NCBI GenBank assembly: GCA_016839945.1
Contig: JAEOTE010000114.1
Location: forward strand, 1 to 32,564
Direction: 5' to 3'
Source: Candidatus Heimdallarchaeota archaeon
GTDB taxonomy: Archaea > Asgardarchaeota > Heimdallarchaeia > Heimdallarchaeales > Heimdallarchaeaceae
Length of the DNA: 32,564 nucleotides
The translations under genes and the position numbers were made by a program. The number at the start of each line of letters is the position of its first letter. The stretch's first letter is position 1. Of this stretch, positions 11,057 to 25,956 are shown piece by piece. The notes below the pieces were generated by a model. It was not told the origin of the DNA and did no database searches. It saw only the letters and a program-made list of their open reading frames with translations.

Positions 11057-11163
11057 AGTTGGGATATAATTTGTAATGACATATTTCTGAAATGAACAAA
11101 ACACAGAGAAGACTAATTTTGTATAATAAACATTTTTATTCTTTGAAAATATTATGTAGGTTA

Positions 11164-12027
11164 ATGAAGCACATATTTCTTTCTCCACATTTAGATGATG
11201 CAGTGGGTAGTTGCGGAGGTTTAATTGCCAAATTAATTTATCAAAGAGAAAAAGTGTTAGTGTTATCGTTATATACAAGAAATATTGATGTTAGTAAATT
11301 ACCTCAGAAATACCATAAATTCGCTAATTATGAAGAGAGAAAGTTGGAAGACAAGAAAGCAATGAATAGATTAAGTGCAGACTACAGATGGTTAGATTTA
11401 CCAGAAAGGGCATATAGAGAGCCCATTCCTAAAAAACCAACAGGTGTTTTCAGAATAAAACTTACATCAGGTTTAGCTCAATTTCCTAATATAGTAAGAA
11501 TTCAGGAAGAAATAAGTAAAGCTATTGATGAATCCCCTAATTCTATTATCTATGCTCCTCTTGGATTAGGTAATCATTTCGATCATGTTGAGGTTTTTAT
11601 TGCTTCTTTAATGTATATGGTTGATTATGCATTATATGACCAATTTCGCTTTTATGTTGATTTTTATGGAATGATTAGCACTAAGATAAGAAAGAAGCAT
11701 TATATTGGAAAGAAACTCATAAGAAAAGGTTTGAAGAAGCCAGAAAAATCTTCATTGAAGTTTTTTTTGATAACATCCGTTATGAATGCAATGATCTCAG
11801 GATCAGCAATTGAAAAAATGCTTGAAACAAAATACAGAAGTCTGAATTGGGAGCTAGAGTCAATATCAATTCATGGTTATGAAAACCTTAAATTTGCTGC
11901 TTTAGAATATTATGAATCTCAGATAAAACTGTTTGGAAAAAAACAAGCAAGGAAAGTAGTTGAGACATATCACAGAAACTGGGATAATTCTGAATTATAT
12001 TTGAAAGCTAAACCAACTCATATCTAA
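11164..12027 (+). CDS. PIG-L/LmbE family deacetylase
   Basis: LSPHLDDAVGSCGG, RKLED..A and PLGLGNHFDH metal-binding motifs. The true start is probably ATG 11164. Confidence 0.9.
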   Translation: MKHIFLSPHLDDAVGSCGGLIAKLIYQREKVLVLSLYTRNIDVSKLPQKYHKFANYEERKLEDKKAMNRLSADYRWLDLPERAYREPIPKKPTGVFRIKLTSGLAQFPNIVRIQEEISKAIDESPNSIIYAPLGLGNHFDHVEVFIASLMYMVDYALYDQFRFYVDFYGMISTKIRKKHYIGKKLIRKGLKKPEKSSLKFFLITSVMNAMISGSAIEKMLETKYRSLNWELESISIHGYENLKFAALEYYESQIKLFGKKQARKVVETYHRNWDNSELYLKAKPTHI

Positions 12028-20819: not shown

Positions 20820-22865
20820 TTATAATTGTATTTCTATCCAATATGCGGGATGATCTGATTGACCTTTTTCTATATATTGTGAGTCCAAAACTATCATTCC
20901 TGGACTTAAGAAAATATGATCGATAGCATTATATTCATCATCATCTGGGTCTATACCTGAGAGATTGATTGCAGCTGTTCCATAGAATTGTACATAAGAA
21001 TCCTCCAAACCTGCAGTTATAGTAGTAATGTTGTATTCAACTGAATAAGGTCGAAAATTAAAATCACCCATAAAGATAACATTTGTTAAGCCAGTTAATC
21101 TACTTACCATTTCTTCTTGTTGATAGATGGTTGTTTGATCTTCATCTCCTGATGGGTGGTTGACAAAGACATTGAAGATTGTTGTTCCAACTGTTATTTG
21201 TGCTTGAGCAGATCCAATTTGCTCTTCATCACTGTACATAAAGAAAGATTCTGCATTTGAAATAGGGAATTTTGATAGAATTGCGCATCCATAAGTATTC
21301 GTTACGGTTTTAGGACCATAATAAGAATACATGTTCAAACGAGATGCCAAATATCTAACAACATCCGAGTTTCCTCCTCCTATTCTTGTTGGATCGCATT
21401 CTTGAAGACCAATTATATCGGGGTCAAGATCTCTTATTAGTTGGAGTTGACCATCATAGTTTCTATCTCCAGACACATTTACTCCTTGTTGAATATTATA
21501 AGTTAGGATTACTAGAGAAGTTTTACCTGATGCGGAATAATTAGGTGAAGGGGTAGTTATAATAGCTCCTACTATTGTTCCAATAAAGATTAGACTAAAA
21601 ATTGATGAGATTATTATTTTCGAACTAATAGTTCTTTCAATCTTTTCATAGCTTAGCGTTGATTTTTTCACCAAAAGAACTGCCAAGGAAACTAACAAAC
21701 TAGGTATAAAGAAAGCTATCCAATACATGTCTCTAAAACCAAAAGAAATTGGAGGAAGATATCCCCAAACATTAGGCAGAACCTGCACAAAAATCATTAT
21801 TATAATAAAAATACTACAAATCAAGAAACTCCCACCAATTTTGATGGGTTTTGTTTTTGTTTTAATTAATTCTTTTGTGAGGAACTTGAAATCGATGTAT
21901 ATTATTGGTGATGTTATAATTGCTATTGCAAGAGGTATATGATAATACCAAGCTGTTGCAGGTGCTTCCAGAGGATATGCACTTGGAACTTTAGGGAAAA
22001 AGATTTGATGTATGAGAATTGTTACTGTAAGCGATAATCCAAACACACCATTCCATGTCCAGATCATCCAATCTTTGAGTTTATTAGATATATCTGGTTT
22101 CCATAATGAAACCGCTATGAACACTCCAATCATAAACATTATACCAATAACAATTCCTATGTAATTTCCTTCAGTCCATCTAGAGATTACTGTAGGACTC
22201 ATGAAGACAAACCAAATTAAGATAAATATATTAATCAAACCCATTGAAAGTCCCAAAATTTTCCAAAAACTTGATTCAACCTTTGATTCTTTTGTTTCTT
22301 CTTTTATTTTGGTAGAATTTTGCCTATTATCAAGGAATAGTACAATCATAATAAGTGCTGCAATTATTCCTAGAATCCAACCAATAATCTGATACCACAA
22401 GTATTGTGATATATCTAATGATGCATTAGCGGTTCTAAATAGGATTGACAAAGCTACTCCTATTGCTAATCCGATTCCTAAATCTTTGCTTATTCTATTC
22501 TCTTTACCTCTTGATTTTGCTAAAAAGGAAGGCAAAATCACTAAAAAGCAACCAACAGATAATCCCGACATTATGTAATTCATTTGTCTTACCATTAGAG
22601 GTTCCAACAATCTAGCAACAATCATGATTTCACCTAAGATTAGTAGCATAATATTGGGGATGTTTTTTCTGAAAAATAAAAGTACCAAAGGTGTAAGTAA
22701 AAAGACTAATCCGAGAATGTTTTCATCAGGTTCTAGATTAAGCAAAGCATAAGCATATATCCTTTCCACCAAATCTGATAATGTTTGAAAGAAAAACAAA
22801 AACAGAATTGAAAAAAGAACAATAATGGAATATTTTTCTCTGAGAATTTTCTTTACTGTGTCCAT
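20820..22865 (-). CDS. Multipass membrane protein with a C-terminal endonuclease/exonuclease/phosphatase domain, CWH43/PGAP2IP-like
   Basis: About 13 hydrophobic segments, then TYNIQQG, DIIGLQE, AILSKFPI, VNH, GDFN, IDHIF and SDH. Confidence 0.88.
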   Translation of the reverse strand: MDTVKKILREKYSIIVLFSILFLFFFQTLSDLVERIYAYALLNLEPDENILGLVFLLTPLVLLFFRKNIPNIMLLILGEIMIVARLLEPLMVRQMNYIMSGLSVGCFLVILPSFLAKSRGKENRISKDLGIGLAIGVALSILFRTANASLDISQYLWYQIIGWILGIIAALIMIVLFLDNRQNSTKIKEETKESKVESSFWKILGLSMGLINIFILIWFVFMSPTVISRWTEGNYIGIVIGIMFMIGVFIAVSLWKPDISNKLKDWMIWTWNGVFGLSLTVTILIHQIFFPKVPSAYPLEAPATAWYYHIPLAIAIITSPIIYIDFKFLTKELIKTKTKPIKIGGSFLICSIFIIIMIFVQVLPNVWGYLPPISFGFRDMYWIAFFIPSLLVSLAVLLVKKSTLSYEKIERTISSKIIISSIFSLIFIGTIVGAIITTPSPNYSASGKTSLVILTYNIQQGVNVSGDRNYDGQLQLIRDLDPDIIGLQECDPTRIGGGNSDVVRYLASRLNMYSYYGPKTVTNTYGCAILSKFPISNAESFFMYSDEEQIGSAQAQITVGTTIFNVFVNHPSGDEDQTTIYQQEEMVSRLTGLTNVIFMGDFNFRPYSVEYNITTITAGLEDSYVQFYGTAAINLSGIDPDDDEYNAIDHIFLSPGMIVLDSQYIEKGQSDHPAYWIEIQL

Positions 22866-22912: not shown

Positions 22913-25084
22913 TTAGAAAAACTTCTGTTCAGCTTTTCTTTCCAAAGTTGTTTTTACAGAGAAATCTAATGTCGTAGGAGTTTTTACTGCTTCCATTAAG
23001 GATGTCCATAACATTTTTGATTTTTTAACTGATTCAACAAATTCATTGAGTTTGTTTAAAGCTTCAAATGAATTTCCTTTATACACATAGGTAAAAAGTA
23101 TTGATTCTTGTACATTTATTATAAGAGTGTAATCTTGATACTTTATTCTTTCAATATGTCCTGTAGATTCAAATATTTCAGAAGCAAATGAGTTTATAGC
23201 TGCTAAAAATCCTCCAATTAAAGCTCCATCTAATTTTGTCAGTTCTAGGAATTTTTGAGTAAAAATTGTTTGACCATCTTTGTTAAGCAAAATAAGCATA
23301 ACAGGTCTTTCTTGTTCAAGATCTTGAATATCAAATTCTTCATTTCTAATTATTTTAACTAGAACTTTGTCGAAGTTTGTTAGATGAAGTCTTTCTGACA
23401 GAGAAGCTTCCTTTTGTAAAATAGCATTCCATTTATCCATCTGACTAATTAACTCATCATGCTCTTTCGAAATCTTCAAAGCTAATCTATGTAGGTCTTT
23501 TTCTTCAGCAATTAATTGAGCTTGAATTAGTAAACTTTTCGCTTCATTTAGATCTAAATCAATTAAAGCAAGTTGAGATTTAAGCCAATATGTCTCAGCC
23601 ATTAATGCAAAGGAATATTGTTTCTTCGCTATTTCAAACAATTGGTCAATAAGAGTTCTCAATTCATTAAAAACATCTTGGTCTCCCATTATCCTAAGTT
23701 CTTCAAGAAGGAGATCACAAAGATTCAAATATGCAATAGTAGTAATAGTATGATCAATAACTTCTTCTTCTATTACGCTTCTTAGTAGTTCTTCTGCCTT
23801 AGCTCTTTTTGGTGTTCTTGAACTTGTTTTAAGAAAAAGAGCTTCAGCGATATTATACTTCTGATTAATTAATTTATTATCTTGCTTTTCTTTTATTTGT
23901 TCCAATTTCTCATGATAAGATTTAGCTTTTTCTAACAATCCTTTATCAAGAGATAAAATAATCAGATAAAACAAGGAACCTGCAGCACCAGTAAAACTTT
24001 TCTCTTTTTCTCTTAATTCGAAGCTTTTTGTAAAAAGTTCAGTTGATTTCTCATAATCTCCTTTCGAGTAATATATGATACCCATGCTTTGGTAAGTAGC
24101 TGCAAGACCATTTAGAAAATTTAGTTCTGCAAAATGGAATTTGCTTTGTTTTAGATATTCTAAAGCATCATCTAATTCTCCTCTAGTTCTATATATTGAT
24201 GAGATATTATACAAACAGGCTGCAACCATATGTTTGTTATCTACTTCTTTTGCTTTCTTCATAGCGTTGAAATAGTAGTCTAAGGAAGAATTTAGCATTC
24301 CTTTTTGTTGATATATATTGCCTATATTCATGCTGGTTATTGCAGAAAAATCCTTATTTTCGTAATCCTTTGATATTTCATAGCTATTAACATAGTAAGC
24401 TAAAGATTCATCAATATGGCCTTTGTTACTATATATAATTCCTAATCTGTTAAGGGTTTGAGCCATATAGAATTTATTTCCTATTGATTTTCTTATATCC
24501 AAACTTTGTTTGAGTAGTTTAGTAGCTTTTTTGAGATTATTATGGTATATGTACATGGCTATTCTATCTATCGTTTTTGCAGTTTCCAACTCATTTTCGA
24601 TTTCTTTGCTTAAAGATAAACTTGCGTTTAGATTTTCTTCTGTTGCTTCTTGATCTCCTGTAGCCCTATTACAAATACCTTTCATTCTTAGTAGTTGTGC
24701 TTTCCTAAGTTTATACTCTCTACTATTTTGTTCAAGAATTTTTTCAAGAACTGATTCAATTTCTATGATTAGATCAAGCGCTTCTTTGAAATCACCCATG
24801 AAAATTAAAGTTTCAGCAACTAGAATTATTGTATCATTTTCTATTATCACATCTTTTGTTCTTTGGCTTTCCCTTTTTAATGCATCAGATATTTTTAATG
24901 CTTCTTGATATTTACCTAAATCCATTTTGATTCGGATTCTAACAAGATTGATTTTCATTTTAGAAATATCATCAAGATTCTCCCATTTTTCTAAAGCTTC
25001 AATCATATCAAGAGCTTCAAAGTACATTCCTTTGATTACCGAATTCTCTATTCTTTCAAGCTCTGATGATATTTCCAAAGACAC
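22913..25084 (-). CDS. Tetratricopeptide repeat protein with a C-terminal longin-like domain
   Basis: Repeats of the type A..LN.LG.IY..KG..D.AL.Y. The C-terminus reads LILLNKDGQTIF...LIGGFLAAINSFASEIF...IERIKY. Confidence 0.88.
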   Translation of the reverse strand: MSLEISSELERIENSVIKGMYFEALDMIEALEKWENLDDISKMKINLVRIRIKMDLGKYQEALKISDALKRESQRTKDVIIENDTIILVAETLIFMGDFKEALDLIIEIESVLEKILEQNSREYKLRKAQLLRMKGICNRATGDQEATEENLNASLSLSKEIENELETAKTIDRIAMYIYHNNLKKATKLLKQSLDIRKSIGNKFYMAQTLNRLGIIYSNKGHIDESLAYYVNSYEISKDYENKDFSAITSMNIGNIYQQKGMLNSSLDYYFNAMKKAKEVDNKHMVAACLYNISSIYRTRGELDDALEYLKQSKFHFAELNFLNGLAATYQSMGIIYYSKGDYEKSTELFTKSFELREKEKSFTGAAGSLFYLIILSLDKGLLEKAKSYHEKLEQIKEKQDNKLINQKYNIAEALFLKTSSRTPKRAKAEELLRSVIEEEVIDHTITTIAYLNLCDLLLEELRIMGDQDVFNELRTLIDQLFEIAKKQYSFALMAETYWLKSQLALIDLDLNEAKSLLIQAQLIAEEKDLHRLALKISKEHDELISQMDKWNAILQKEASLSERLHLTNFDKVLVKIIRNEEFDIQDLEQERPVMLILLNKDGQTIFTQKFLELTKLDGALIGGFLAAINSFASEIFESTGHIERIKYQDYTLIINVQESILFTYVYKGNSFEALNKLNEFVESVKKSKMLWTSLMEAVKTPTTLDFSVKTTLERKAEQKFF

Positions 25085-25194: not shown

Positions 25195-25956
25195 CTATCT
25201 GGGAGAAGCTAACAATCTCTTAATTTCATTTACAACTAACGACAAGAACTCTCCAGCTTTTACTCCAAGCTTGATATCTGCTATTGAATCTAAACCTGTT
25301 GGATCTATATTAAGAATTATTAATTTAGCTCCATTTTGTTTAGCTAATTTAGGTAAGTGAGCAGCTGGAAATACGGATAAACTTGATCCAATTACTAGCA
25401 TTAAATCACAATTAGCAGAATGTTCTTTAGAAATACTTACTTCTTTATCTGGCATAGGTTCATTGAAATTAACCACAGATGAAATAATTCTCCCTTGACA
25501 GATTTTACATACTGGTTGACCTAGTGCTTCAGATTCTGATCTAGAACCTCTTCCATGAACCTCTCTATTCCAACCTATTTCATTTCTACCAAATCTCGAA
25601 TCACAATCTAAACACTTCATAAGAGTATAATTTCCATGCAATTCAGCTAACATTTCAGGCTTTATTCCTGATTTTAAATGTAGATTATCAACATTCTGTG
25701 AAATTAAAAATTTCATAATTCCCATGTTTTGAAGTTCAACTAAAGCTAAATGCGCGGAATTCGGTTCAACTTCATCAAAATGCTTTGATTTCTTAGGGGG
25801 AAGACCTTTATCTCTTCTCGTCCAGATGCCATCTTTTCCTCTAAAGTCTGATAAACCTGATTCAGTGCTTATTCCTGCCCCTGTGAAAACCACAAAATAT
25901 TCCGAATCTACGATTTCTTTTGCAATTATATTAATATCATTCTTTGAGTAAGTTAT
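25195..25956 (-). CDS. NAD-dependent protein deacylase, Sir2 family (class IV/SIRT6-like)
   Basis: TGAGISTESG..DFRG, SQNVDNLH, ELHGN, a CxxC...CxxC zinc site and GSSLSVFPA. The frame extends 21 codons upstream of GTG 25893 to ATA 25956. Confidence 0.93.
   Translation of the reverse strand: MTYSKNDINIIAKEIVDSEYFVVFTGAGISTESGLSDFRGKDGIWTRRDKGLPPKKSKHFDEVEPNSAHLALVELQNMGIMKFLISQNVDNLHLKSGIKPEMLAELHGNYTLMKCLDCDSRFGRNEIGWNREVHGRGSRSESEALGQPVCKICQGRIISSVVNFNEPMPDKEVSISKEHSANCDLMLVIGSSLSVFPAAHLPKLAKQNGAKLIILNIDPTGLDSIADIKLGVKAGEFLSLVVNEIKRLLASPR

Follow-up and report, generated by a model that had tools for sequence, protein, structure and literature searches.

Is the large membrane protein encoded at this locus a true relative of the eukaryotic protein Cwh43/PGAP2IP and, if so, does it stand in the line that led to remodelling of GPI lipids? 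The open reading frame in question spans exactly positions 20820-22865 on the minus strand of the window, i.e., the whole stretch of 32,564 nucleotides that was analysed. It is intact, without stops, and encodes 681 aa (P0001). An earlier note, made from the DNA letters only, described the product as a Cwh43/PGAP2IP-like enzyme of a probable Asgard archaeon that may be ancestral to GPI remodelling. The host is indeed an Asgard archaeon judging from the names of the nearest homologues, which are Heimdallarchaeota/Heimdallarchaeaceae followed by Hod-, Loki- and Thorarchaeia, including Promethearchaeum syntrophicum. Sequence comparison places P0001 as a real, full-length but paralogous relative of Cwh43/PGAP2IP, and not as its ancestor. 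The features referred to below are the following (in the order of the protein, all on the minus strand).

20820..22865, minus strand: P0001 gene, predicted 681-aa membrane EEP phosphodiesterase, type A of the Cwh43/PGAP2IP-like family (open reading frame, Pfam, homologues, structure match)
21660..22865, minus strand: residues 1-402, 12-helix (6+6) membrane domain of MFS fold, with homology to both 6-TM domains of PGAP2IP (model; structure Z 16-18.7; hhalign 97% against the eukaryotic TM part)
22419-22427, minus strand: sequon N147 (sequon count)
22167..22193, minus strand: residues 225-233, outer loop after helix 7, with R229 and W230 common to eukaryotes and type C (alignment, loop conservation)
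21729..21773, minus strand: residues 365-379, loop that joins helices 11 and 12 on the outer side, with Y369, P371 and R378 conserved (alignment, loop conservation)
21561..21617, minus strand: residues 417-435, 13th helix, predicted to take the EEP domain outside (model, hydropathy and K+R topology)
21534-21542, minus strand: sequon N442 (sequon count)
20823..21524, minus strand: residues 448-681, EEP domain (DNase I-like), PGAP2IP/GlcNAc-PDase subgroup (PF23226, 85.9 bits; Z 25.1 to 4ruw)
21495..21497, minus strand: N457, canonical metal-site residue, T in 17/19 eukaryotes (alignment)
21471-21479, minus strand: sequon N463 (sequon count)
21399..21401, minus strand: E489, metal ligand kept in all groups (alignment)
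21156..21158, minus strand: H570, kept in all groups, including 19/19 eukaryotes (alignment)
21057..21065, minus strand: D601-F602-N603 motif, Y (19/19) and T/V (19/19) at 601 and 603 in eukaryotes (alignment)
21024..21032, minus strand: sequon N612, kept in 78/99 homologues (sequon count)
20958-20966, minus strand: sequon N634 (sequon count)
20850..20855, minus strand: D671-H672 catalytic pair; eukaryotes keep D, and H is T in 18/19 (alignment)

The hydropathy profile of P0001 has 13 peaks, and an AlphaFold model built from 99 homologues (pLDDT 90.1, pTM 0.92) has 6+6+1 helices followed by a C-terminal alpha/beta EEP domain, which agrees with the about 13 TM segments and EEP domain described earlier. 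Residues 5-405 of the model take up the MFS fold, with Z 16-18.7 over 333-356 residues (rmsd 4.7-5.1) to OCTN2, a bacterial ferroportin homologue, NorA and Spns1. P0001 shares the 12-helix, two-bundle fold of these transporters, but the identity is 8-12%, and it differs from them in being fused to an enzyme and in having no conserved cytoplasmic loops. A PDB sequence search with P0001 returned no relative at E<=0.01. The C-terminal domain belongs to the EEP superfamily by its DNase I-like fold together with the residues N/E/H/DxN/D/DH. Among the best 50 Foldseek matches of the P0001 model, only generic EEP domains were found.

The relationship to Cwh43/PGAP2IP extends over the full length of the protein, membrane part as well as EEP domain. 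The EEP domain scores 85.9 bits against PF23226 (PGAP2IP C-terminal, cut-off 27) versus 76.3 bits against the generic PF03372, in line with the earlier remark that it follows the Cwh43 pattern more closely than generic EEPs do. The best Atlas match of the P0001 model is a Chloroflexota-rich cluster of its own family (TM 0.92); the PGAP2IP cluster is matched with TM 0.82 over 622 residues (rmsd 3.5) and the fungal Cwh43 cluster with TM 0.81 over about 620 residues. Profile-profile comparison of the P0001 family with eukaryotic sequences (fungal loci collected by motif scan, animals and others by homologue search) gave 99.9% probability over 545 columns at 17% profile identity. With the membrane part only, hhalign gave 97.3% (E 2.7e-11) against the eukaryotic TM part and 0.7% for the reversed control. 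The earlier note had let the homology depend on a profile or structural match of the TM region to Cwh43, and both kinds of match were found. In Pfam searches with the membrane models, PF23021 is matched by 16 of 74 family members (best E 4.4e-7), neither PF23021 nor PF23022 matched the host genome at E<=10, and the TM part of P0001 falls below both cut-offs. The two membrane motifs said to echo Cwh43, 'TVISRWTEG' and 'NVWGYLP...FRD', do align with it; in 19 eukaryotic Cwh43 sequences R229 is R in 14/19 and W230 is W in 13/19, while P371 and R378 are P and R in 19/19. Mammalian PGAP2IP (gene CWH43) and the C-terminal two-thirds of fungal Cwh43 (PF23022 + PF23021 + PF23226) likewise have 6+6+1 helices and an EEP domain, with the catalytic domain non-cytoplasmic. 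Fungal Cwh43 has in addition an N-terminal Frag1/PGAP2 domain (PF10277), which P0001 lacks.

The N-terminus of P0001 is predicted to be inside and the EEP domain outside. Counted over 99 homologues, the N-terminus and the even loops contain 2.4-5.5 K+R per loop, and the odd loops and the linker after helix 13 contain 0.3-1.4; it is this alternation that places the EEP domain outward. The earlier note reached the same orientation from four sequons. These exist (N442, N463, N612, and N634), but for P0001 alone they were rejected as proof of topology, as four compares with 2.3 +/- 1.4 in shuffled sequences, i.e., chance level. Across the family the pattern does agree with the K+R orientation: N612 is kept in 78/99, N147 in 57/99, and N463 in 55/99, and sequons are depleted in inner loops (ratio 0.47). 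They are rarer in bacterial members (0.5 vs 2.8 per sequence). Conservation is one-sided as well. At a threshold of >=80%, 13 outer loop positions are conserved versus one inner position, the start Met, and the inner (cytoplasmic) loops are otherwise unconserved. The conserved residues on the outer face of the membrane domain, R85, R144, D151, R229, W230, Y369, and R378, lie beside the enzyme and form a putative binding site for a lipid head group.

The profile of the P0001 family matches 23/25 other genomes of the host family and, at E<=1e-20 and with every subfamily included, 116/251 Asgard genomes. Several subfamilies occur in Asgard genomes: besides types A and C there are a tandem paralogue (family f5, from the same class as the host family), a second copy (family f13), and versions split over two genes. 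Type A, to which P0001 belongs, has members in Asgard, Anaerolineae, Ardenticatenia, Verrucomicrobiota, and Hydrogenedentes. Type C (P0269-P0281; loci L228-L231, L316, L340-L343) has the complete PF23022+PF23021+PF23226 architecture and a canonical EEP site, and its proteins score above the three PGAP2IP Pfam cut-offs, P0269 with 35.7 / 86.6 / 98.3 bits. Full-length matches to the eukaryotic profile (247-317 bits) were found in only 5/400 Asgard genomes, all Heimdallarchaeia; P0001 scores 93 bits over part of the protein, and type C was not found in its host genome. The contigs that carry type C genes are gene-dense and come from assemblies labelled Asgard, and two of the genes adjoin Arf/Roc-type GTPases; one type C record is labelled Promethearchaeota. 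The bacterial profile searches took in Chloroflexota and Verrucomicrobiota, and no bacterial sequence closer to eukaryotes than type C was found in 251 Chloroflexota genomes (best 110.6 bits) or 201 Verrucomicrobiota genomes (best PF23021 27 bits). GTDB-wide motif scans for such bacterial sequences returned a single match, a 23-residue piece on a 1-kb contig.

Some further variants of the family were found. In the split versions, found in other Asgard families (L106:530-2574, L107, L111, L099, L300), a 12-helix gene is directly followed by a gene for an anchored EEP domain. Type B (L085, L089, L097) is a diverged paralogue of about 645 aa that forms a tandem with the type A gene where it occurs, in genomes of family f5. 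A second Chloroflexota group (L309-L314; genomes of 1.4-1.9 Mb) has diverged full-length homologues that join the type D branch on long branches. P0282 (L232:142-2163) from a Heimdallarchaeota genome is intermediate between types and adjoins eukaryotes and type C with 95/89 in one tree; its position is unstable in the EEP-only tree.

Type C, which has the same architecture and canonical EEP site as P0001, differs from it in grouping with the eukaryotes. Eukaryotes plus type C and type A were each recovered with support of 100 by FastTree (107 rows), with 100/100 and 100/99 by IQ-TREE under LG+G4 (48 rows, bootstrap not fully converged), with 100 and 97 from TM-only columns, with 91 and 95 from EEP-only columns, and with 100 and 99 under C20/PMSF (29 rows). 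All trees are unrooted, the eukaryote rows are mostly animals and fungi, and bacterial sampling is partial. P0001 falls in the type A clade with Asgard, Chloroflexota, and Verrucomicrobiota proteins, apart from eukaryotes. Forcing the eukaryotes together with type A costs 88 log-likelihood units and is rejected (AU p=0.00015). This test, the missed Pfam TM cut-offs, and the canonical site all speak against P0001 as sister or orthologue of eukaryotic Cwh43, and the suggestion that it is ancestral to GPI remodelling is likewise not supported. It had been held against the proposal in advance if the protein should nest among bacterial EEPs far from the eukaryotic clade; P0001 does share its clade with bacteria away from the eukaryotes, but the family as a whole is close to Cwh43. 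By these sequence trees, type A is a paralogous side branch of the family that gave rise to eukaryotic Cwh43/PGAP2IP, and among the sequences found here no prokaryotic one stands nearer to the eukaryotic enzyme than type C. Asgard ancestry of Cwh43 via type C is likely rather than proven, given unrooted trees and a partial sample of bacteria. With a root outside type A, the bacterial type A members nest among Asgard sequences, which suggests transfer of type A from archaea to bacteria.

The catalytic motifs that had been described as intact are all present in P0001 (N457, E489, H570, D601/N603, D649, D671/H672) and invariant or nearly so in 99 homologues; the eight residues are retained in 51-52/52 type A and 14/14 type C sequences. 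The 19 eukaryotic sequences retain E489, H570, and D671, in common with P0001, but have replaced N457, D601, N603, and H672, and D649 is E/Q in 19/19. The eukaryote-type site (T, Y, T/V, and T at 457, 601, 603, and 672) is absent from P0001, which has N, D, N, and H instead. In GlcNAc-PDase, whose site residues were mapped onto P0001 by motif, alanine at six metal-site residues, except Glu (Glu89), sharply lowers activity (PMC10704324). GlcNAc-PDase (Clostridia group) and bacterial sphingomyelinase-type EEP phosphodiesterases have the same canonical two-metal site as P0001, but are soluble, secreted, single-domain proteins with no MFS-fold part. With such sites, the prokaryotic members resemble ordinary two-metal hydrolases. 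We propose that eukaryotes rebuilt their active site once they had diverged from type C, and that Cwh43 activity came with the rebuilt site.

What P0001 does has to be read from this combination of parts. On balance it is taken to be an outward-facing two-metal phosphodiesterase that would work on the outer side of the membrane and cut a lipid-linked phosphodiester there, because the full-length match to PGAP2IP/Cwh43, the MFS fold, the eight retained site residues and the one-sided conservation of outer loops all point that way. The MFS-fold domain would then be a scaffold that holds the lipid part of the substrate, the seven conserved outer-face residues would position the phosphate or head group, and the N/E/H/DxN/D/DH site would hydrolyse the phosphodiester as a phospholipase C or sphingomyelinase does. 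Candidate substrates include archaeol phospholipids whose head group is inositol or a sugar, and lipid-linked glycans. The host genome, which is 88%-complete, has one inositol-phosphate synthase-like gene and two CDP-alcohol phosphotransferases, and lipids with phospho-head groups are therefore plausible substrates. Against a lipid substrate, those prokaryotic members of the subgroup that have been characterised all act on GlcNAc-6-phosphocholine/ethanolamine in soluble or glycan-bound form, and no pathway is indicated by a conserved gene neighbourhood in about 114 loci.

A true MFS fold could also mean transport. The protein would then be a scavenging unit, in which the EEP domain cleaves soluble extracellular phosphodiesters, e.g., glycerophospho-head groups that stem from dead cells, and the product is taken up through the MFS-fold domain. 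Asgard and Anaerolineae are sediment heterotrophs, type A is common to both, some lineages encode the membrane part and an anchored EEP domain in two separate genes, and a few positions of helix 1 (Q27, Y37) are conserved. This is nevertheless unlikely, as loop conservation is one-sided, on the outer face, and is lacking in the cytoplasmic loops by which MFS transporters are gated, none of the 74 members matched an MFS Pfam family at E<=1 among the 25 families listed, and no catabolic genes recur as neighbours.

Somewhat less likely still is the reading put forward in the earlier note, that P0001 exchanges lipids or head groups (transphosphatidylation) on an archaeal lipid anchor in the way of the Cwh43 ceramide remodelase. 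The Cwh43 homology on which it was built has stood, architecture and membrane motifs are common to both proteins, and E489, H570, and D671 are kept in both. Yeast CWH43 is needed for the change from diacylglycerol to ceramide (PMC7125958), and a phylogenomic preprint gives GPI synthesis an Asgard origin in general terms, with Cwh43 unnamed (PMC12338589). It is the exchange itself that is doubtful, since the four residues replaced in essentially all eukaryotes are in P0001 those of a hydrolase, and hydrolysis of a lipid-linked phosphodiester appears likelier than lipid exchange for that reason. Moreover, the same subfamily is present in bacteria, and mammalian PGAP2IP, with exactly the same architecture, is without assigned function in a review (PMC7125958). 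Nor were GPI8 (PF01650), Gaa1, and Frag1 (PF10277) found in the host genome, the searches for Gaa1 and Frag1 being without positive control; the three were also not found in four type C genomes. The host genome contains four PIG-L-family genes, and PIG-L matched 7/14 control genomes as well. It also contains two DUF998 genes (the clan of Frag1), which are unlinked to the family gene. At one type C locus (L343:186-863) a DUF998 gene, of the Frag1-like clan and related to the N-terminal part of fungal Cwh43, was seen 7 kb from the type C gene; this linkage was treated as chance, since no DUF998 gene shared a contig with the family gene in five other genomes checked.

Least probable is a surface-glycan editor that resembles GlcNAc-PDase, strips phosphocholine/phosphoethanolamine-type groups from N-glycans or glycolipids and uses the membrane domain as anchor only: the EEP domain faces outward and GlcNAc-PDase, the sole biochemically characterised activity of the group, is in the same EEP cluster, but GlcNAc-PDases are soluble and form a separate subcluster, and a conserved 12-helix domain whose outer-face residues are invariant goes far beyond an anchor.

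Returning to the outward lipid phosphodiesterase, it is tempting to speculate, though we hold it with reserve, that the family diversified in Asgard archaea with type C as the direct sister of the eukaryotic protein, and that its members, including P0001, work at the cell surface, where they remodel inositol or glycolipid head groups of archaea. If so, GPI-lipid remodelling would go back to an Asgard lipid phosphodiesterase that was inherited and in which four active-site residues were rewired.

Part of this relationship was known. An 'Asgard/Chloroflexus group' has been placed in one EEP cluster with Cwh43 and PGAP2IP but was not studied there (PMC10704324). P0001 fits the taxon mix of that group (Asgard and Chloroflexota), its larger size, and its different domain organisation, and the two are most likely the same protein set. 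That work clustered EEP domains only and gives no account of the group's membrane domain, its Cwh43 homology there, subfamilies or activity. No paper was found that reports the membrane-domain homology, the type C sister group or the active-site rewiring; the EEP-domain link was already known. The role of Cwh43/PGAP2IP was called largely unknown in a 2019 paper, and a 2020 review leaves the function of PGAP2IP open (PMC7125958); loss of CWH43 is reported to be linked to normal-pressure hydrocephalus. Since prokaryotic relatives combine the same body with a textbook site that is intact, they are tractable proxies for work on structure and substrate, and the four-residue difference offers a direct test of a change from hydrolase to remodelase. 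Most value lies in this contrast and in type C, a candidate eukaryotic-signature orthologue and the useful marker of eukaryogenesis, rather than in the P0001 gene, one among hundreds of similar side-branch paralogues.

The P0001 gene sits among co-oriented, unrelated genes (TPR protein, GNAT acetyltransferase, nitroreductase, methyltransferase), and a sigma-70 scan gave matches at chance level. No conserved operon was found around family genes in about 114 loci, and no neighbour is conserved past close relatives, the real ones recurring in at most about 10/80 Asgard loci; the top recurring 'neighbour' was discarded as an antisense shadow ORF in GC-rich bacteria. An ICMT/PEMT-like membrane methyltransferase two genes downstream of P0001 (18695-19225, minus strand) was not found beside genes related to P0001 at the loci compared, and a PIG-L-family deacetylase 8.8 kb away (11092-12027, plus strand) has no homologue among the neighbours of related loci. 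Directly upstream, a 723-aa TPR protein (22913-25084, minus strand), the C-terminal part of which is without Pfam match, is syntenic in a few close relatives only. A Sir2-family deacylase ORF (25195-25893, minus strand) fits its profile only from about position 56-70 onward, and its N-terminal part may have been lost or be encoded in another frame. Elsewhere in the host genome there is a second type A copy of 671 aa (L002; G000:C126:10940-12952, minus strand), and the same duplication is visible across the host family.
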